This document shows positions 4,385-58,758 of a stretch of 64,000 nucleotides of DNA, piece after piece. The notes under the pieces were generated by a model that was not told the DNA's origin, did not search any database, and saw nothing but the letters and a program-made list of their open reading frames with translations. Position 1 is the stretch's first letter, and every line of letters begins with the position of its first letter. The DNA comes from Candidatus Omnitrophota bacterium (lineage in GTDB: Bacteria; Omnitrophota; Gorgyraeia; Duberdicusellales; 4484-171). Where the stretch lies: positions 65,314-129,313 of the forward strand of contig JAFGQU010000004.1 in the NCBI GenBank assembly GCA_016935525.1, read 5' to 3'. A program made the translations under genes and the position numbers.

Positions 4385-5569
4385 TTACTCTCCTCGCCTT
4401 ATCGCTTCGATCGGGCGCATCGACGATGCTCTTAATGCCGGATATATTCCGGCAACTAAACCCATAATAATTGCCCCCATAAATGAACTCAGCAAGAGGC
4501 CACCGGTAATAACCACCAGATGACCGCTGGGAGCGTAAGGCAGGATACCGCGTAACATATGTTCCACCAATCTGGCGGCGATTATCGCAAAAAGATTACC
4601 CATTATTCCTCCCCACACACAGATCAAGGTAGTCTCAATCCAGATAATCCGGAAAATATCAAACCGCGATGCGCCAATGGCTTTCATCACTCCGATCTCT
4701 TTTGTCCGCTCGAATACCGACATGAGTATCGTATTTACCACACCGATCACGGCAACAAATATTGCGATGATCGCTATAGAATTGGTCATCACTTTTGCCG
4801 AAGATATCAGATTGAAGATCGTACCGCGTACCTCGGCCATACTTATTACCTGAATCCCGGGTTCATCATAGAGATCTTCTTCAAAACCGGCAATCTGGCT
4901 TATTTCTTTCAATTTTATGCCGATACCGGTGAGCTGGTCCGGTAAACCGAAAATATTCTGGGCAGTGACAAGCGGTAAAAAAATAAGCCCGTCATCCTGA
5001 GTCCCGGTACGTTCGAAGATACCGGCGACCGTAAGGATTTTTTCAATACCCGGGATGAATATTTTATCGCCGATCGAACGTTGTTCGAATTCGGCCGCTT
5101 CATATCCCATAATCACTTCTTCAGCATCGTCTTGAGAAAACCAGTTTCCCGATTTGAATTTTATCCACGGTTTTAAATCAAGAAACGAACGGTGTATGCC
5201 CATATAGAGAGCCAGTCCTCCCTGCCCGTTGTTTTTATCAGGATCATACACGGTATGGACCAGTTGAGGGGTAATCGCCGCGACCCGGGGATCATTGATA
5301 ATCTTGCTATACACCTCTTGATCCATATACCTCAGGCCCCCGCCGCCTTTAAGCATCAGCGTTGCCGCCTCATAAGGGCATCCTTTCGCTGTAATCAACA
5401 CCTGAAATCCCATTTTATCAATATCGCTGCGTAATCCCCGTTGATATCCTTCATCAAAACCCATAAGGCTCACCAGTACCGCGACTGCGACTCCCACCCC
5501 GCCGACAGTCAAAAATGACCTGATCTTTTTCCTTTGTAGATTCTTGAAGGCGATTGCGATAGATTTCAC
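4385..5569 (-). CDS. ABC transporter permease, FtsX/MacB-like
   Basis: N-terminal TM helix, a large periplasmic domain and a C-terminal FtsX-type 3-TM bundle. Its stop abuts the ATPase start. Confidence 0.8.
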   Translation of the reverse strand: MKSIAIAFKNLQRKKIRSFLTVGGVGVAVAVLVSLMGFDEGYQRGLRSDIDKMGFQVLITAKGCPYEAATLMLKGGGGLRYMDQEVYSKIINDPRVAAITPQLVHTVYDPDKNNGQGGLALYMGIHRSFLDLKPWIKFKSGNWFSQDDAEEVIMGYEAAEFEQRSIGDKIFIPGIEKILTVAGIFERTGTQDDGLIFLPLVTAQNIFGLPDQLTGIGIKLKEISQIAGFEEDLYDEPGIQVISMAEVRGTIFNLISSAKVMTNSIAIIAIFVAVIGVVNTILMSVFERTKEIGVMKAIGASRFDIFRIIWIETTLICVWGGIMGNLFAIIAARLVEHMLRGILPYAPSGHLVVITGGLLLSSFMGAIIMGLVAGIYPALRASSMRPIEAIRRGE

Positions 5570-5937
5570 TGTAATTCTACTCCTTGGCCGATCAGAGACG
5601 TATTTCCGGTACGGGCACTTACCGTGCCCTGGACAACCACCTTTTTCCCGACCATCTGGGGAATAGCGAATCCCGAAGGTTTAATATCCACATAGATCTC
5701 TCCGGTCGTATCGTTAAGATTAAACCAACATCCCGACGGGCATTCCCGTACGATCTTCCCGGAAACCGTAACGGTCTTACCGCTAAGTTCTCCCGGATTA
5801 CTGAGAATATTTCTTATCGGTACCGAAGTATACTCTGTAATCGGTTCACCGAACGATTCCGAAGAAACATTCGTAGTACACCCTATAATCAAAATTATAC
5901 CTGTAAATAAAGCTAAAAGATACGTTACCTGTTTCAT
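5566..5937 (-). CDS. small lipoprotein with predicted OB-fold and CPSGC motif
   Basis: Lipobox LIIGC. Beta-rich 123 aa protein with a CxxxC pair. Has 4-nt overlaps with both neighbouring genes. Confidence 0.5.
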   Translation of the reverse strand: MKQVTYLLALFTGIILIIGCTTNVSSESFGEPITEYTSVPIRNILSNPGELSGKTVTVSGKIVRECPSGCWFNLNDTTGEIYVDIKPSGFAIPQMVGKKVVVQGTVSARTGNTSLIGQGVELQ

Positions 5938-11630: not shown

Positions 11631-11717
11631 AGGGCTCCTTCTCTCAGCCGGCACCTTCATCCGGTACCAGCATATTATTATATGGCAGAAAGCGGTATCT
11701 GCCAATTATTCTGATTT

Positions 11718-32023: not shown

Positions 32024-33064
32024 ATGATTACTGAACTTAAAAAGGCTATTGACCGTAAAATCCCTTCTTTTATAAAAAGTATCGATACCACGTACTCCTT
32101 AAGCAAGATCTCTCCCCTGCTTTATACCTGTATTAAAGATTTCGTGACCCGTGACGGGAAACGGGTCCGGCCGATTCTTTTTGTCGTGGGCTATCTTGGA
32201 TTTGCCAAAAAAACCGCCCCCCGGCTCTACACCAGCGCTCTGGCGATAGAACTGCTCCACGATTTCATGCTGGTCCATGACGATATTATCGATAAATCGG
32301 ATACCCGGCGGGGCAGACCTTCGATGCACGCGTTACTCAACACTCATCTTAAAAAACTTCGCGGGTTGAAGTTTGACGGACAGGACCTGGCGATCGTGGT
32401 CGGAGACGTGATGTACGCGATGGCGATCGACGCGTTCCTCGCGATCAAAGAGGAACCTTACCGTAAAGAAAAAGCGCTTAAAAATTTTATCCGGGCGGCG
32501 ATCTTCACCGGCGGCGGGGAATTCATCGAACTGCTCAATGACGCAAAAAAGATCGAACAGGTCACTAAAAACGATATCTATAAGATCTACGATTTTAAAA
32601 CCGCCTATTATACTTTTGCTACTCCGCTTTCAACCGGAGCGATCCTTGCCGGCGCGCCTGCATCTGCGATACGCGGCCTTTCCAGTTACGGAGTCGCGTT
32701 AGGCCGGGCGTTTCAGATCAAAGACGATATTTTGGGAATATTCGGTAATGAAAAGCAAATCGGAAAATCGACCCTTTCCGATCTGCAGGAATCGAAGAAG
32801 ACGCTGCTTATCTGGAATACTTTTCTTAATTCTTCCGCGAAAGACAGGTTACGGATTAAAAAAATGCTTACTAAAGATAAAGTCACCCGAGGAGACCTCT
32901 CACTGATGCAACAGCTTATCACCCGAACGGGGGCGCTCGATTATGCCCATAGCGAGATCAAACGCCTCATAGGTCAAGCCCAGGGTATCGCTGAAAAGAT
33001 TCCAATGCACCAAAAATACAAAAAACTACTTCTCACGTATCCCGCTCAGCTTCTCCGCGTGTAA
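32024..33064 (+). CDS. polyprenyl diphosphate synthase (GGPP-synthase-like)
   Basis: First Asp-rich motif LVHDDIIDKSDTRRG (DDxxD) and second Asp-rich motif FQIKDDILG. Confidence 0.85.
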   Translation: MITELKKAIDRKIPSFIKSIDTTYSLSKISPLLYTCIKDFVTRDGKRVRPILFVVGYLGFAKKTAPRLYTSALAIELLHDFMLVHDDIIDKSDTRRGRPSMHALLNTHLKKLRGLKFDGQDLAIVVGDVMYAMAIDAFLAIKEEPYRKEKALKNFIRAAIFTGGGEFIELLNDAKKIEQVTKNDIYKIYDFKTAYYTFATPLSTGAILAGAPASAIRGLSSYGVALGRAFQIKDDILGIFGNEKQIGKSTLSDLQESKKTLLIWNTFLNSSAKDRLRIKKMLTKDKVTRGDLSLMQQLITRTGALDYAHSEIKRLIGQAQGIAEKIPMHQKYKKLLLTYPAQLLRV

Positions 33065-33116
33065 TATTTCCCCTTTTCTTAAAGATCATTATTCAAGAAG
33101 TATGTCGAAAGATTGG

Positions 33117-33343
33117 ATGTATTTTTACCACAGAGCTCACAGAGAGCATAGAGGAAAATAAAATAGTCCGTCTCGGTTTATCAAGGATATTTGGTTTCTT
33201 CCCATCGAATATCGATGGGATATTTTTGCAAAAACAATTAAAACCGGAAAATATAATTTTCCGGTTTCATGCGGTTTTTGCAAAGAAAAGCGCAAAAACG
33301 CGAAACCAAATGTCCGTCTTATTATCTCTGTGGGACTCTGTGT
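33117..33343. repeat. MITE-like repeat, copy A (inverted relative to copy B)
   Basis: 227 bp bounded by ACCACAGAGCTCACAGAG ... CTCTGTGTCCTCTGTGGT terminal inverted repeats. Internal palindromes CCCATCGAATATCGATGGG and AAACCGGAAAATATAATTTTCCGGTTT. About 75-80 % identical to 58519-58758 when reverse-complemented. Confidence 0.7.
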
Positions 33344-33396
33344 CCTCTGTGGTAGAACTATCTCTCTTTTAGCAAACACAACTTGATAAGAGGAAA

Positions 33397-34272
33397 TCAG
33401 AAACAGACGAATTTACATGTTCCCGCTTGCACGTCGAGTGCGATCTCGTTTTGGGGATCAAGAGTAAGCGCTTTGGTGATATATTCTTCGTATTTGGCAA
33501 GATCGCCTTTGGCGCGATAGGCTTGCGCTAACCGCGCGTATATATCGGGAAACCGCGGATCTTTTACGATCGCTTTTTCCAGGTATTCTATACCTTTATC
33601 GATATCCCGCCCCAGTACCGGCGGGATGAGCATATAATAACTCCCCATACCGTAAAGCACCGAAACACTGTCCGGCTTGATCTTTTCGGCCGCTTTCAAA
33701 TGAGGCAATACCGCCGCGCCGTTGACGGCTTTTGAAAGCGGCCCGCCATAATGGGCGATCATTCCTTTGGCTCCGGCATACAGGCCGTGAGCGTTGGCCA
33801 TATTCATAGAATTCACTTTTTGTTCGCCTAACCGCAACACGGTTGCGGTAAGCCTTACGGTCTCTTCGAATTCCATCTGCATATAACGGATATACCCTAA
33901 ACTGATATAAGCCGGAGCAAATTGAGGATCCTGGGCGATTACCTCTTTCAGTATCCGTTCGGACTCACCGTACCGGTGGCCGCGCCGTAAACACTCGGCA
34001 ATACCCCATCGGGCCGGAATATCTTGAGGATTGAGACCATACAGTTTCTGAAATATCTTTTCGGCTTTTTCGTCCTCGTGTGCGGTCAAATACGCTAACG
34101 CCAGCGTATAAAGTTCCGCGGGTAAAGCGGTATTTTGATCTATCTGCGCCTCGGCTTCCGGTAGAGTCATCGTATCGGCTCGTTCATGGAGCCTGATCCA
34201 GTCGAAATCCGCGCCCATACCGAAAGAACCTATCCAACAGGTTATTAGAAAAAAAACAATGATTCTCTTCAT
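33397..34272 (-). CDS. secreted TPR-repeat protein
   Basis: Signal peptide. Repeated TPR-like A/Y/L helical hairpins. Confidence 0.6.
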   Translation of the reverse strand: MKRIIVFFLITCWIGSFGMGADFDWIRLHERADTMTLPEAEAQIDQNTALPAELYTLALAYLTAHEDEKAEKIFQKLYGLNPQDIPARWGIAECLRRGHRYGESERILKEVIAQDPQFAPAYISLGYIRYMQMEFEETVRLTATVLRLGEQKVNSMNMANAHGLYAGAKGMIAHYGGPLSKAVNGAAVLPHLKAAEKIKPDSVSVLYGMGSYYMLIPPVLGRDIDKGIEYLEKAIVKDPRFPDIYARLAQAYRAKGDLAKYEEYITKALTLDPQNEIALDVQAGTCKFVCF

Positions 34273-34568
34273 GAACGCATCTTCTTTTTAAAAAATTCCC
34301 AGGACACTATAGTAAGCGTCACTAAACTGAAATTAAACAGAAAATCTTCCAGAGGTATCGTCCCGTATTTTATCCCGAGAATCATCTTAGGATTATACCG
34401 GACAATACCCGCGCCGGTGATAAAGCCGTTGACGATAATCATCAATATCACAAACAGCATGAAATATACCCAGAATTTTTTGTTTTTCAGCAGGGAAACT
34501 CCCGTTATACGGTCGATCAGTATCGTTACTACGACTGAAATGGCGGCAAAAACGGTATATTCTTTCAT
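34269..34568 (-). CDS. lycopene cyclase domain protein (heterodimeric CrtYc/Yd-type subunit)
   Basis: 99 aa, 3 TM, with the IPLEDFLF (PxE[ED]) motif of lycopene-cyclase-domain proteins. Confidence 0.6.
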   Translation of the reverse strand: MKEYTVFAAISVVVTILIDRITGVSLLKNKKFWVYFMLFVILMIIVNGFITGAGIVRYNPKMILGIKYGTIPLEDFLFNFSLVTLTIVSWEFFKKKMRS

Positions 34569-34569
34569 A

Positions 34570-34872
34570 TCACTTTTTCCAAAAATAATTCACTGTTTCC
34601 CAGGTAAACACACAACAAAAAGGTATGACAATAAAAAAAAGCGCCTCTTCTAACGGTACATTGACGATATAAATATTACCTACGCTCGCGGGATCAAAAA
34701 ACCAATGGCCGCGCCAGGTAGCTCCTACATCCCATATTCCGAAACCCAAAAGGATAATGGTGGTAGTTTTTACTAACGCCCGCCAATTACGCCAGAAGCC
34801 CAGCCCAGGCCAGAAACTCAATAAAAACGGGAATATACCGGATAAAAAAAGAACCCACATATACCGGGACAT
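34570..34872 (-). CDS. lycopene cyclase domain protein (second heterodimer subunit)
   Basis: About 100 aa from MSRYMWVLF, with the VPLEEALFF motif. The ORF as reported extends to 35025 into crtB. Confidence 0.55.
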   Translation of the reverse strand: MSRYMWVLFLSGIFPFLLSFWPGLGFWRNWRALVKTTTIILLGFGIWDVGATWRGHWFFDPASVGNIYIVNVPLEEALFFIVIPFCCVFTWETVNYFWKK

Positions 34873-34938
34873 AAAAAGATTGTATCTTAAATGCCCCCCT
34901 TGTTCAAACGAAAACTCTATTGATTCACACAGGTTTAC

Positions 34939-35829
34939 GTGTACAATGAAAAAATGATGGCGGCCAAAGGCGATTCCCTGATCAAAGCCGGATACAAAAT
35001 TGCCCGTACACTGACCCGTATCCATGCCCGTACGTTTTATTTCGCTTCACTCTTTTTAACCGCGGCCCAAAAACCGGCGGTTTATTCAGTATACGCGATC
35101 TGCCGCAGGAGCGATGATATCGTCGATACGGAAGGAAATTCCGATAGAAAAAAGGACCTCGCGGCGATGGAAAACAAAATAACGCACGCTTACTCGAACG
35201 AGCCGCTTCCCGACCCGTTACTCGCTGCGTTCCGTCATACCGTACACGAATATGCCATCCCGAAAAGCTATTTTGACGAACTCCTCAAAGGTATGGCTAT
35301 GGATCTGGAAAAACCGCGGTATGAAAATTTTCAGGAACTCTCGCTTTATTGTTACCGGGTAGCCGGCGTGATCGGGCTGATCATACTTAAGATATTCAAA
35401 ACGGACACCCCCGAAGCCGAACCGCCAGCGATCGCGCTAGGGATCGCCATGCAACTTACCAATATCTTAAGAGATATCCGTGAAGATTATCTTAAAAAAA
35501 GAATATATGTTCCTCAGGACGAACTGCGCCGGTTCGGAGTAACCGAGACTCAATTGGCTCAACATACCGTAGATAATAATTTTATCGCACTGATGAGGTT
35601 TCAAATCGACCGAGCTCATGAGTATTACCGCCAATCGGCCGAAGGGGTTAAATTGATCAAGGCTGCCCGCGACCGGTATGTCGCCGGAATAATGAAAGAA
35701 GCCTATGAAAAGATCCTTGATGAGATAGAATTAAAAAATTACGATATATTTTCTCAGAAAGTATTTGTACCGTTAAGAAAAAAGATAATGACCGCGTTAC
35801 GGTTATTAGGAAAAGAGACCTGGGCATGA
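34939..35829 (+). CDS. crtB: phytoene synthase (squalene/phytoene synthase family)
   Basis: YCYRVAGVIGL and NILRDIREDY Asp-rich motifs. Its stop overlaps the ispH start (ATGA). Confidence 0.8.
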   Translation: MYNEKMMAAKGDSLIKAGYKIARTLTRIHARTFYFASLFLTAAQKPAVYSVYAICRRSDDIVDTEGNSDRKKDLAAMENKITHAYSNEPLPDPLLAAFRHTVHEYAIPKSYFDELLKGMAMDLEKPRYENFQELSLYCYRVAGVIGLIILKIFKTDTPEAEPPAIALGIAMQLTNILRDIREDYLKKRIYVPQDELRRFGVTETQLAQHTVDNNFIALMRFQIDRAHEYYRQSAEGVKLIKAARDRYVAGIMKEAYEKILDEIELKNYDIFSQKVFVPLRKKIMTALRLLGKETWA

Positions 35830-36668
35830 AGATCAATCTCGCCCGTTCGGCAGGATTTTGTTTTGGAGTAAAAAGAGCGTTAAAGCTTGCCTATCAAACC
35901 GCGAAAGCAAGACCTTCGGTGGTAATGCTCGGCGATATCGTCCATAACGAAGAAGTCGTAAAAGATATCACTGCCGCCGGTATAAAGAAAATAGACCGTC
36001 TGGGTAAAGGCAAAAAAACTACCCTGCTTATCCGCGCGCACGGCGCCTCTAAAAAGACGATCGAGCGGGCCCACACACAAGGCTACGCTATCGTTGACGC
36101 TACCTGCCCGATGGTGAAAGAGATCCATACTCTGGCCCATACGGCCGAACGTCAAGGGTATACCGTCATCATCATCGGAGACAAAAAACACGATGAGGTG
36201 CAGGGAATCATCGGACAACTGCAGAGTAACGCTCTCGTGATCGACTATCTCAAAAATATACCTACGCGAAAGCTTACTTCTCTGACTAAAGCCGCGGTAG
36301 TAGTCCAATCGACTCAGAATATGGAAAAAGTATTGGAGATCGTCGATAAAATAAAAAAATACGTCCCCGACCTGAAATTTTTTAATACTATCTGTAACCC
36401 TACCCGGATCAAGCAGAAAGAGATCCTCACTTTACCGCTGGAGAACGACGTAATCCTGGTGATCGGCTCAAAGATGAGCGCAAATACCCGGCGGCTCTAT
36501 GAACTCGCCCGGGGTCTTAATCGCCGTACCTACTGGATCCAGTCAAAAAAAGAACTGCGGAAACGCTGGTTTAAAAATACCCGCAGCGTAGGGATAACTG
36601 CCGGAGCATCTACTCCCGATAAAATCACAAACGAGATCGTCGCTTACCTTAAAACCTTCACTCTGTGA
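35826..36668 (+). CDS. ispH: 4-hydroxy-3-methylbut-2-enyl diphosphate reductase
   Basis: N-terminal NLARSAGFCFGVKRA and the conserved Cys triad context of IspH/LytB. 280 aa. Confidence 0.9.
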   Translation: MKINLARSAGFCFGVKRALKLAYQTAKARPSVVMLGDIVHNEEVVKDITAAGIKKIDRLGKGKKTTLLIRAHGASKKTIERAHTQGYAIVDATCPMVKEIHTLAHTAERQGYTVIIIGDKKHDEVQGIIGQLQSNALVIDYLKNIPTRKLTSLTKAAVVVQSTQNMEKVLEIVDKIKKYVPDLKFFNTICNPTRIKQKEILTLPLENDVILVIGSKMSANTRRLYELARGLNRRTYWIQSKKELRKRWFKNTRSVGITAGASTPDKITNEIVAYLKTFTL

Positions 36669-56671: not shown

Positions 56672-57487
56672 TCAGTATTCTATTTTTGCGATATCGGATT
56701 TTTTGATAGTAACGCGCCCTTCACCTTTACCTAAATCAAGTTTTACGATAATCCTGTCTCCTAATTCCTGGATAATATTCCCTTTAATTATCCGTCCGCT
56801 CTTAAGCACGATCGTCGCGGCATCTTTTTCTTCGACTTTAATACTGATATTCTTAAACCGGGCAGCAAATTCCGTGATGATTTCCTGGGGAATAAACCGG
56901 TAAATCCCATACAACGCCCCGATGACAAAGAGGAGTCCGAACACCACCTTCAGGAAAGAAAGCACACGCAGATGTTTCATCTTACCTGCGGAAGTCGCTA
57001 TTCCCCGGCCGTGACGTTTAGAATAATATAATGCTTCGTCAGCCCGGCGAAAAAGGATATCGACCGAAGTCCCGTCTGCAGGGTACGACGAGATACCGCA
57101 ACTCATACACAACTTAAACATTTTCCCCTGATAAATAAACGGACTGTGATCGATATTATACATACAACGTAATGATAATTTAAAAGCCTCTTTGCCGGTA
57201 AGAGCAGGAAGCACTATCACGAATTCATCTCCTCCGTAACGGAAAATCGCGCCTTTTTCCTGAATAGTATACCGTAACACGTTCGACAGGTGTTTCAACA
57301 CTTCGTCGCCGAACTGATGACCGTAACGGTCATTAAACTTTTTAAAATGGTCCAGGTCAATGATCACCAATGACGCGGATTTCTGGTTGGATTGGGCTTT
57401 CGCCAGCGCTTCTTCCAGAAACGGCACGAGCGCCTCTCTGCGGTAAAACCCGGTTAAAGCATCTTTATGCGTATGTTCAAGTATCAT
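56672..57487 (-). CDS. GGDEF-domain diguanylate cyclase with C-terminal TM anchor
   Basis: RYGGDEF active site and I-site-like RRAD. One TM helix plus a short C-terminal domain. Confidence 0.8.
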   Translation of the reverse strand: MILEHTHKDALTGFYRREALVPFLEEALAKAQSNQKSASLVIIDLDHFKKFNDRYGHQFGDEVLKHLSNVLRYTIQEKGAIFRYGGDEFVIVLPALTGKEAFKLSLRCMYNIDHSPFIYQGKMFKLCMSCGISSYPADGTSVDILFRRADEALYYSKRHGRGIATSAGKMKHLRVLSFLKVVFGLLFVIGALYGIYRFIPQEIITEFAARFKNISIKVEEKDAATIVLKSGRIIKGNIIQELGDRIIVKLDLGKGEGRVTIKKSDIAKIEY

Positions 57488-57712: not shown

Positions 57713-57770
57713 ACCACAGAGCTCATAGAGTTGTACAGAGAAGATACACTTACATAAAATCCGGGAAAGT
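57713..57770. repeat. MITE-like repeat, partial copy C (5' arm only)
   Basis: AACCACAGAGCTCATAGAGTTGTACAGAGAAGATAC matches the 5' terminal region of copies A and B, then diverges. Confidence 0.45.
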
Positions 57771-57793: not shown

Positions 57794-58285
57794 TTAATTC
57801 TGTATGAGCAAAGTGATTTCTACCGGAATAAGTCCGCGATCAAGCGAAGCAATACGGGCAAATGCGGCACGGGTCAGATCGATTATTCTGCCGTTTTTTA
57901 CCAAACGTCTTGCCGGGCCACGATCGTTGACCCGTACCACTACGTATTTGCCGTTCTCAAGGTTTTTCACTTTGATCAGAGTATTAAACGGCACGTCCCA
58001 TAAGGCACAGGTAAGCTGAGAATCATCGAATTTTTCCATATTCGCCGTGGTGGGAAGGATCCCGGGATCGGTCTCGGAATACCATGAAGCTACTCCCTGT
58101 TGAGAGATGTGCTCATCAAATTGAGCCGTTATTTCCTGGGAAAAACCGGGAAATACAAAGAAGATCAGGGTACATATGCCCAAAAAGACGGCGATGAACC
58201 GCGTGTGAGAGGCAAATAAAAAACCCATCTTAAGCTTAAAGATGGGTTGAATTATGAAACGTACCAGTGGCAACCGGGCTACCAT
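57794..58285 (-). CDS. RlpA-like double-psi beta-barrel (septal ring lytic transglycosylase family) protein
   Basis: GVASWYS...GKYVVVRVNDRGP DPBB signature. N-terminal TM/signal sequence. Confidence 0.7.
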   Translation of the reverse strand: MVARLPLVRFIIQPIFKLKMGFLFASHTRFIAVFLGICTLIFFVFPGFSQEITAQFDEHISQQGVASWYSETDPGILPTTANMEKFDDSQLTCALWDVPFNTLIKVKNLENGKYVVVRVNDRGPARRLVKNGRIIDLTRAAFARIASLDRGLIPVEITLLIQN

Positions 58286-58518
58286 AGGATTCCTCCTTTA
58301 GGTCCAAGGCTTTGCGTCCCCCGATTTCTCGGAGTTTGCCTTTTTCACTTTGAGAGACTGGTATATTTTATCAGTCCCTAAATTGTCAATTATCTCCTAC
58401 ATTCTACCTAATATATGCCATATATACGGCCAGAAAATCAAGGCCCCGGCAGAAAAAAAACAATCTTTGGTTACAATGTATTATTCAGGGGGTGTCTTCA
58501 CAGAATGGATGCATTGTA

Positions 58519-58758
58519 ACCACGGAGAACACAGAGTTTCACAGAGAGAATACAGAAGATATTTGGGCTCGCGCTTTTATGATATAAAAGCGTGTTTCTT
58601 TGCAAAAACAATGAATAGCGGGGAATATGATTTCCGGCTTTCTGTGGTTTTTGCAAAGATGCCCCATCGATATTCGACGGGGATACACCAAATATCTTCT
58701 GTACGCCGAGATTGAAAAATCTCATTTTTACCTCTGTGAACTCCGTGCACTCTGTGGT
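58519..58758. repeat. MITE-like repeat, copy B
   Basis: 240 bp bounded by ACCACGGAGAACACAGAG ... CTCCGTGCACTCTGTGGT terminal inverted repeats. Internal hairpin CCCCATCGATATTCGACGGGG and TTTTTGCAAAGA motifs shared with copy A. Confidence 0.7.

Follow-up and report, generated by a model that had tools for sequence, protein, structure and literature searches.

Heptamer-array inverted repeats in an Omnitrophota genome: putative gene-less members of an element class linked to GxxExxY nuclease genes

The repeat copies and their setting

The window analyzed here is the whole of a stretch of 64,000 nucleotides (nt) of Candidatus Omnitrophota (assembly GCA_016935525.1, contig JAFGQU010000004.1, positions 65,314-129,313), and coordinates are those of the window unless another locus is named. 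It contains two full, mutually inverted copies (A and B) and one solo or truncated copy (C) of a short repeat bounded by arrays of the heptamer CACAGAG. A first-pass annotation described this repeat as a non-autonomous transposable element resembling a miniature inverted-repeat transposable element (MITE), or as a dispersed family of structured non-coding RNA (ncRNA). Arrays of the same build occur in many other bacteria and in phages, where they also frame genes of the GxxExxY family of predicted nucleases, and the window copies are considered below as putative gene-less members of that class. The copies and their parts are as follows.

33105-33126, plus strand: stretch of 22 nt outside the left array of copy A, AGATTGGATGTATTTTT...
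33127-33353, plus strand: copy A, 227 base pairs (bp) from array end to array end, gene-less; left array, branched palindromic interior and right array
33127-33153, plus strand: left terminal array of copy A, ACCACAGAG-CT-CACAGAG-AG-CATAGAG
33201-33219, no strand: internal perfect hairpin of copy A, CCCATCGAATATCGATGGG
33223-33286, no strand: central palindrome of copy A, TTTTTGCAAAAAC ... CCGGAAAAT/ATTTTCCGG ... GTTTTTGCAAAGA
33326-33353, minus strand: right terminal array of copy A, read on the minus strand as ACCACAGAG-GA-CACAGAG-TCC-CACAGAG
57713-57760, plus strand: copy C, solo or truncated; array at 57713-57740, ACCACAGAG-CT-CATAGAG-TTG-TACAGAG, then about 20 nt resembling the left interior of copy B
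58497-58518, plus strand: stretch of 22 nt outside copy B, AGAATGGATGCATTGTA..., homologous to 33105-33126
58519-58758, minus strand: copy B, 240 bp, gene-less, with the interior inverted relative to copy A
58519-58546, plus strand: terminal array of copy B, ACCACGGAG-AA-CACAGAG-TTT-CACAGAG
58662-58682: internal hairpin of copy B, CCCCATCGATATTCGACGGGG
58732-58758, minus strand: other terminal array of copy B, read on the minus strand as ACCACAGAG-TG-CACGGAG-TT-CACAGAG

All the ends in the window follow the pattern ACCACRGAG-NN-CAYRGAG-N2-4-YAYAGAG, which is found five times, against 0.00 in 100 shuffles, while CACAGAG itself occurs 15 times (1.96 expected) and TTTTTGCAAARA five times (0.06 expected). 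The terminal inverted repeats built from CACAGAG, the perfect internal hairpins and the truncated third copy beginning at 57713 were all described correctly in the first-pass annotation, and the array of copy C has no inverted partner. The position given for copy B was exact, and that given for copy A (33117-33343) was shifted by 10 nt. The inversion of the two full copies holds as well, since it is the reverse complement of copy B that aligns with copy A, at an identity of 72.7% over 245 alignment columns, slightly below the 75-80% that had been estimated.

When 30 nt are trimmed from each end, the interiors of A and B are still 69% identical (alignment score of 68.5, against -8.1 +/- 5.5 for shuffled sequences), so the similarity of the two copies is not a product of the CACAGAG runs, a concern that had been raised with the original description. 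A resemblance arising by chance or from low complexity has the short period of the arrays in its favor and nothing else, and, given that zero shuffles reach the observed counts and that the interior is shared, its probability is negligible. The outer 22 nt of the left sides of A and B match at 17 of 22 positions despite the mutually inverted interiors (both the count and its significance being hand estimates), and this suggests either an interior able to change orientation between its inverted arrays, or modular ends.

The copies are all intergenic, as had been reported. Copy A lies between two convergent genes, encoding a polyprenyl synthase (32024-33064, plus strand) and a TPR protein (33397-34272, minus strand), copy B is located between a D-Ala-D-Ala-ligase-like gene and a c-di-GMP-I riboswitch, and copy C between a DPBB gene and a GGDEF gene. 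Open reading frames (ORFs) overlap the full copies at 33137-33379 (minus strand, copy A) and 58350-58715 (plus strand, copy B). No remnant of a GxxExxY gene was detected in the interiors of the window copies by profile hidden Markov model, even at E = 10, and no further copy was found in the 5 kb to the left of the window.

The closest relative on record (GCA_964483625.1; 59% amino-acid identity) retains the whole carotenoid neighborhood adjoining copy A, together with the convergent pair of TPR and polyprenyl-synthase genes, and the spacer between this pair is 25 nt long in the relative vs 332 nt in the window. The short spacer in the relative fits a putative gain of the element in the lineage of the window. 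The carotenoid cluster itself (33397-36668) includes two lycopene-cyclase subunits (PF18916), and its matching contig also has genes matching squalene/phytoene synthase (PF00494) and LytB (PF02401).

The surroundings of the other two copies include a c-di-GMP-I riboswitch (RF01051, 79 bits; 58266-58350, minus strand), which is placed directly 5' of a DPBB/RlpA-like gene (57794-58285, minus strand), and this gene is adjoined by a gene encoding a GGDEF diguanylate cyclase (56672-57487, minus strand). Copy B is immediately upstream of the riboswitch, and copy C immediately downstream of the gene under the control of the riboswitch. Just past the left edge of the window (locus L332, about 11640-11700), there is an inverted repeat of array-like build, composed of another unit, TAGTCTCTAGTCTCTGGT ... 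ACCAGAGACTA.

The end motif in other genomes and in phages

The end pattern was searched for exactly in one genome per GTDB species, with a second scan of IMG/VR. The motif (A-rich)TTM-ACCACAGAG-RR-CACAGAG-RR-CACAGAG was found at no fewer than 120 genome loci (at least 120), and likewise at at least 120 loci in viral contigs. The genome matches listed belong to Planctomycetota, Acidobacteriota, Chloroflexota, Bacteroidota, Desulfobacterota and delta-proteobacterial lineages, cyanobacteria, Verrucomicrobiota, Chlamydiia, and some beta- and gamma-proteobacteria, and two archaeal metagenome-assembled genomes (MAGs) are also among them, in which binning contamination is possible. One of the genome matches shown, a coding repeat of Ruminococcus (L024), looks like a chance match. 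The isolates that carry the motif include Bacteroides finegoldii, which has many gene-less hairpins of the CACAGAG type, B. ovatus, Nostoc, Pseudoalteromonas, and Gemmatirosa kalamazoonensis, where it is present at 23 and 15 places on two megaplasmids. In the isolate records, there is never an annotated feature beneath the motif. Escherichia coli has none, among 5,426 complete genomes.

The repeat had been presented as a novel family. Its end arrays are not restricted to this genome, and are spread over bacterial phyla, the two archaeal MAGs and phages. The interior of the window copies returned no BLAST match in any locus fetched from other genomes, and this branched palindrome of about 170 nt appears to be the lineage-specific part, while the terminal arrays are widely shared.

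The flank logo of 116 ends runs from an A-rich stretch through TT[A/C] to an invariant ACCAC, with purine-rich spacers of 2 nt, and does not contain GTAG. An array consists of two to five heptamers spaced by about two purines, always opening with TTM-ACC[A/G]C. The class was delimited by this opening, followed by at least two like heptamers of the C[A/G]C+RRAG type with a period of 8-11 nt, and all five ends of the window fall within it. Arrays are also built from other heptamers (CACGGAG, CACAAAG, CACGAAG, CACGGAA, CGCAAAG, and CGCAGAT), and the units are alike within any one array.

Among the genome loci listed, 84 of 148 arrays (57%) have an inverted partner within 400 nt, vs 2 of 148 in a control window. 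The paired arrays form hairpins of approximately 60-250 bp, whose interiors are unrelated between genomes, with loops elsewhere of 4-200 nt, and hairpins standing back to back, 20-30 nt apart, are common. The arrays are either intergenic or located inside operons, and the element-bearing sites between co-directional operon genes include gmd-fcl, nuoM-nuoN, nuoF-nuoG, and radA and a gene for a flavin adenine dinucleotide (FAD)-dependent protein.

Some loci present more complex arrangements. Hairpins of CACAGAG are nested within inverted CGCAAAG arrays in L195 (600-900) and L226 (6397-6800 and 2783-3200), and in L226 the composite nested unit is tandemly repeated with a period of 149 bp. In the phage contig L193, two CACAGAG arrays in inverted orientation, separated by about 1.2 kb, have a VapD/Cas2-like gene between them (PF09827, E = 1.8e-6; 5363-5716, minus strand). 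A 2.9-kb inverted pair on this contig was considered as an autonomous element and rejected, as it consists of two separate intergenic arrays around the genes of the capsid, the VapD/Cas2-like protein, and SSB. In one phage lineage (IMG/VR L129, L130, L157, L164, L171, L223, and their relatives), the first A of ACCAC is shared with the stop codon (TAA or TGA) of the gene upstream. In this same lineage (L129, L130, L157, and others), tandem CTTAAAA heptamers stand between the CACAGAG array and the next start codon, an arrangement that recurs before several different genes, tail-fibre-like and others. The positions of genes relative to the arrays, taken from a greedy selection of ORFs, have peaks at a stop codon overlapping ACCAC and at a start codon 35-43 nt downstream, which derive largely from a single redundant phage lineage. 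Identification of the motif as a sigma-54 promoter, a hix-like invertase site, a heptamer/nonamer of the recombination-signal-sequence type, a CsrA site, boxA, or a Chi site was dropped on the basis of the sequence alone.

The RNA alternative of the first-pass annotation, that is, a dispersed ncRNA family whose function resides in a conserved secondary structure, draws on the very stable predicted folds. Both copies fold end to end as a rod with three internal branches (z = -11.1 for A, folded as DNA, and -12.8 for B, folded as RNA), and the three internal hairpins are kept between them. Any long inverted repeat folds well, however, and the copies stand in both orientations relative to the neighboring genes. 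Searches of Rfam with the window copies, 18 paired loci, and the Bacteroides hairpins, at both gathering and permissive thresholds, recovered no family for the element, and the matches seen were the neighboring c-di-GMP-I riboswitch, a transfer RNA, and spurious matches of microRNA precursors to long hairpins. It is the sequence of the arrays alone that is conserved across genomes, and not the interior. The dinucleotide complementarity of the spacers between the arms is 0.46, vs 0.37 by chance, a value reached by 13 of 500 shuffles, and no excess of agreement between the arms was observed at the variable heptamer positions. The orthologous gmd-fcl hairpins of B. finegoldii and B. ovatus have wholly different loops, and the sole differences between their arms are transitions at tolerated positions, none of them compensated. 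The barely complementary spacers and the uncompensated changes in the arms indicate that the heptamers are conserved as sequence, and not as pairs. The RNA family is considered a very improbable explanation.

GxxExxY genes framed by the arrays

The first case of a gene between arrays was observed in a Prosthecobacter locus (L046), where the ORF between two arrays encodes a GxxExxY protein (TIGR04256; PF13366, PDDEXK_3). An iterative search of all the ORFs in 240 array-seeded loci identified three GxxExxY genes, all three immediately flanked by arrays, and this is the only gene found recurrently between or next to the arrays. The association was also examined from the side of the protein, in 80 metagenome loci fetched with a GxxExxY protein as query. 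Arrays were detected there by their general build, in which C[A/G]C and a purine-rich tetramer together form a unit that recurs every 8-11 nt. Array density is 14.6 hits per kb within 100 nt of the ends of the GxxExxY genes, vs 0.56 per kb at distances of more than 250 nt, a 26-fold enrichment. The full succession of array, gene, and inverted array is found at 28 of the 80 loci, with arrays on one side only at some 20 more, and the strict detector recovers no array at nine. The upstream array ends 0-20 nt 5' of the start codon, and the downstream array begins 10-30 nt 3' of the stop codon.

The type of heptamer varies from locus to locus, with CGCAGAG in 21, CACAGAG in 20, CACAAAG in 15, CACGAAG, CGCGGAG, and CACGGAG in nine each, CACCAAG in four, and others. 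In each of the 32 cases with two arms, which cover at least eight heptamer types, the heptamers of one arm are within one mismatch of those of the other. Further arrays at the same locus are of exactly the type that flanks the gene in 14 of 38 cases, vs 5 of 38 for random loci. Homogeneous heptamers within each arm, and agreement in type between the arms and, in part, with the other arrays of the genome, are expected if the heptamers are recognition sites, and are not demanded by the pairing of a stem alone. Concerted evolution by slippage and gene conversion could add to this homogeneity.

The build of the window ends also frames GxxExxY genes in loci L039, L255, L268, L317, and L323, in B. 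finegoldii, and in Geobacter benzoatilyticus. In B. finegoldii, for example, the gene of WP_032839887.1 is located between radA and the gene of an FAD-dependent protein, and is framed by arrays of the CACAGAG type, TTCACCACAGAGGACGCAGAGGACACGGAGG ... CTCTGTGACCTCTGTGTCCTCTGTGGTGAA. In G. benzoatilyticus (CP071382.1; L333, 9971-10401), the array-framed gene is found between nuoM and nuoN, as is the GxxExxY cassette of a Geobacteraceae MAG (L039, 5085-5525). A GxxExxY cassette with an in-frame stop is located between nuoG and nuoF in L095, and the nuo operon recurs among the sites.

The GxxExxY protein has about 125 amino acids (aa) and a PD-(D/E)XK nuclease fold that resembles Cas4 (PF13366/TIGR04256). 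The family forms 31,036 clusters at 50% identity (E <= 1e-3), in bacteria, archaea, and viruses. In a survey of the PD-(D/E)XK superfamily from 2012, PDDEXK_3 was listed as being of "function unknown", present in prokaryotes and viruses, and subject to multiple transfers (PMC3424549). Residues D67, E77, and K79 and the GxxExxY motif are invariant in 43 sequences, the AlphaFold2 model has a predicted local distance difference test score (pLDDT) of 94.4, and no solved structure matched the protein in sequence. To judge from these residues and the model, the protein looks like an active nuclease. The top-scoring representatives of the profile (P0241-P0254) are 270-295 aa long, with two matched stretches, and are either true tandem fusions, or adjacent cassettes that gene callers have merged across an in-frame array.

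The suggestion of a non-autonomous mobile element stands insofar as the copies are dispersed, bounded by inverted repeats, and missing at the syntenic site of the relative, but not in the form of a classical MITE, that is, an internally deleted insertion sequence (IS) moved by a DDE or other conventional transposase binding the heptamer-array ends. A MITE would account for the terminal inverted repeats (27-28 nt at both ends of A and B), the small size (227-240 bp), the non-coding interior, and the presence of several intergenic copies, amounting to 2.5 dispersed copies in 64 kb. Subterminal iterated binding sites are also present in some transposons, such as Tn7, Mu, and IS607.

Target-site duplications, for which the flanks of 38 inverted pairs (including A and B) were searched, are lacking, given that the best direct repeat has a mean length of 3.47 nt, vs 3.26 nt with shuffled partners. 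The ends are, moreover, fuzzy, as the inverted repeat continues for a variable 0-19 nt outside ACCAC, and no duplication lies immediately beyond the extended repeat. The cognate transposase for which a search had been suggested did not appear either, and it was the search for one that led to the GxxExxY gene. In the all-against-all clustering of the ORFs of 120, and then 240 array-seeded loci, no transposase was enriched among the neighbors, all clusters being of common families, namely SDR, ABC ATPase, glycosyltransferase, UvrD, and phage structural genes, and no pair of arrays was found to enclose a transposase. In a survey of 183,232 genomes, MITEs were found to be essentially genus-specific (PMC11602168), unlike the motif described here. 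A classical MITE is thus quite improbable.

Direct evidence of movement is limited to the diverged copies in the window, the short syntenic spacer, and one indel of 404 bp between two phage contigs (L146, 1428-1831, and L228, about 5007-5061), the flanks of which are 95-97% identical. One junction of this indel is exactly TTTA|ACCAC, and the insert consists of an ORF of 120 aa without a Pfam match and a solo CACGGAG array. In Bacteroides, the boundaries of the gmd-fcl hairpin as an insertion cannot be drawn, as gmd and fcl overlap in Phocaeicola massiliensis and leave no spacer.

A proposed nuclease-linked class of repeats and its meaning

Given that the window copies carry, without the gene, the end signature that frames GxxExxY genes of the CACAGAG type elsewhere, they are read here as gene-less (non-autonomous or decayed) members of a widespread class of inverted-repeat elements built around the GxxExxY nuclease. 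This class would resemble the hairpin-forming doublets (REPINs) of repetitive extragenic palindromes (REPs) and their REP-associated tyrosine transposases (RAYTs), and a probability of roughly 0.55 is assigned to the reading. The nuclease gene would encode a protein that recognizes the iterated heptamers on either side of it. This protein would maintain or spread its own cassette and would act in trans on the gene-less pairs, which are far more numerous, in the way proposed for RAYTs and their REPINs. The absence of target-site duplications points to a cut-and-repair, homing-type, or hairpin-based route, and not to DDE transposition. For elements within operons, the transcript would in addition contain a long stem made by the arrays. 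The binding, cleavage, and mobilization of the arrays by the GxxExxY nuclease are steps that we infer from the comparison of sequences.

A number of observations weigh against this reading. The association alone cannot separate an enzyme that moves repeats from a gene that lodges in pre-existing hairpins, and in about 12 of the 80 loci the gene sits between hairpins, with the ACCAC ends next to it, and not inside one. In Prevotella nigrescens (L328, 250-400 and 770-900), the GxxExxY gene is flanked by a directly repeated leader, which contains units of the ACAAATC type, rather than by inverted arrays. The nuoM/nuoN cassette occupies one site in two species, with proteins that are 77% identical, and this sharing of the site by two Geobacteraceae implies that the Geobacter cassette is old and stable, and that many cassettes may be fixed residents rather than active elements. 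The phage arrays in sense orientation just upstream of unrelated genes are solo arrays, and, together with the indel that carries another small ORF, they imply that the arrays are not exclusive to GxxExxY. In the case of the window, the "empty" site is that of a relative no closer than 59% in amino-acid identity, so that the boundaries of the insertion are not definable, and no GxxExxY gene was found within the 64 kb or the 5 kb to their left.

Several of these observations, and others, would also suit arrays that are sites for some other conserved DNA- or RNA-binding factor of the host or the phage, with hairpins that act like REPs (as insulators, mRNA stabilizers, RNase III stems, or terminators), and with GxxExxY as a mere passenger or homing gene. 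Many elements lie between co-directional genes of operons, such as the gmd-fcl, nuoM-nuoN, nuoF-nuoG, and radA-FAD sites, and the GxxExxY gene is co-oriented with both of its neighbors in 20 cases, vs five in which it is opposed to both. Across the family, the stem has an A-rich flank on its 5' side and a T-rich one on its 3' side, and this succession of A-tract, stem, and T-tract resembles a bidirectional terminator, although the stems are of at least 27-30 bp, with mismatches, and a scan for terminator consensus flagged only the internal sub-hairpins of copy B. In one phage group, solo arrays on the sense strand overlap the stop codon of the preceding gene and are followed by a start codon 35-43 nt further on, and arrays are also found next to other small ORFs. 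In B. ovatus and B. finegoldii, the arms have been kept while the loop is saturated with changes.

A factor of this kind would, however, need one specificity across phyla, yet the heptamer type differs by locus and genome, and is uniform in each element. A terminator or an RNase III stem needs neither a specific repeated heptamer nor an invariant TTM-ACC opening, and the spacers have not been kept complementary. This explanation also leaves the 26-fold enrichment at a single gene family unaccounted for, and it is considered unlikely, although the arrays could serve as nuclease sites and in an RNA-level or other-factor role at once.

If the copies are members of a GxxExxY-centered class, the nearest analogue, on the likenesses set out here, appears to be the REP/REPIN-RAYT system. 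Both consist of short intergenic repeats that occur mostly as inverted, hairpin-forming doublets (57% of the arrays are paired here), in tens to hundreds of copies, often inside operons, and with clusters of alternating orientation, as in bacterial interspersed mosaic elements (BIMEs). In both, one copy or a few copies carry a small gene with the repeats on its flanks, the type of repeat co-varies with the gene that it flanks, and target-site duplications are absent. The enzyme, by contrast, is a PD-(D/E)XK protein of about 125 aa (Cas4/RecB-like) here, and a Y1 HUH tyrosine transposase in the RAYT (TnpA_REP). The unit is a direct heptamer array opened by TTM-ACC rather than an imperfect palindrome after GTAG, and the motif spans phyla and phages, with none in E. 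coli, whereas REPs are species-specific.

Other systems share fewer of these features. Bacterial MITEs, such as Correia/NEMIS of Neisseria and Nezha of cyanobacteria, are likewise non-coding, intergenic elements of 100-300 bp with terminal inverted repeats, several diverged copies, and rod-like folding, but the elements described here show neither a target-site duplication nor a parent IS or transposase, their ends are fuzzy and made of iterated heptamers, and their interior is not conserved between genomes. The intervening sequences of the 23S ribosomal RNA (rRNA) of Leptospira and Coxiella (S23p four-helix bundle, PF05635) are small ORFs tightly bracketed by inverted repeats, which would form a long stem in the transcript and are tolerated within essential transcription units. 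They resemble the GxxExxY cassettes in this bracketing inside essential transcription units, and differ in the protein family and in the rRNA context, which was not seen here.

Homing endonuclease genes of the PD-(D/E)XK class, free-standing or borne by introns (such as I-Ssp6803I), and the IS200/IS605 elements are also selfish, encode a small nuclease, generate no target-site duplication, and spread by cleavage and repair or through hairpin DNA. The homing genes, however, lack the frame of iterated inverted repeats and the swarm of gene-less copies, while IS200/IS605 elements end in asymmetric hairpins and encode an HUH transposase. In comparison with the nucleases of the Cas4/RecB family, the GxxExxY protein is about half the size, with approximately 21% identity, no aligned Fe-S cluster domain, and no association with CRISPR.

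In open-access full texts, neither the arrays nor their association with GxxExxY were found to be described, although an earlier remark on flanking repeats is possible, and no published function for GxxExxY (PF13366/TIGR04256) was found in the open-access literature. The motif strings CACAGAG and CTCTGTG are not contained in the MITE census (PMC11602168), and the sole trace of the arrays is a polymerase chain reaction primer for B. fragilis, which by coincidence was placed on one of them, upstream of BF2782 (PMC3090145). The bracketing of GxxExxY genes by such arrays in other genomes suggests that the heptamer-array hairpins are an apparently undescribed, nuclease-linked family of selfish repeats.

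A broader proposal, advanced tentatively and at somewhat less than even odds, is that GxxExxY is the dedicated nuclease of a pan-prokaryotic, REPIN-like selfish class, which would read its own flanking heptamers and maintain or spread its cassette together with the much larger population of gene-less hairpins, including the three copies of the window. It would then represent a second, independently evolved system of a repeat plus a domesticated nuclease beside REP/RAYT, with a minimal Cas4-like fold and a recognition code that could be read from the flanks of the gene.

The arrays have practical consequences for genomics, as they interrupt assemblies (a large number of the contigs with GxxExxY have a length of about 1 kb, and arrays are located at contig ends), create spurious ORFs, and sit within the operons of well-studied gut bacteria. 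If the proposal is true, it would provide a function and a natural substrate for a very large protein family, and a second system of dispersed hairpin repeats with a cognate enzyme, present in Bacteroides, cyanobacteria, Planctomycetota, Acidobacteriota, Geobacter, Omnitrophota, and many phages. Given that the presumed recognition heptamers lie on both flanks of each gene, and vary in type from gene to gene, the family would offer thousands of natural pairs of protein and site, which may be used for the decoding, and perhaps the re-engineering, of a compact sequence-specific nuclease.

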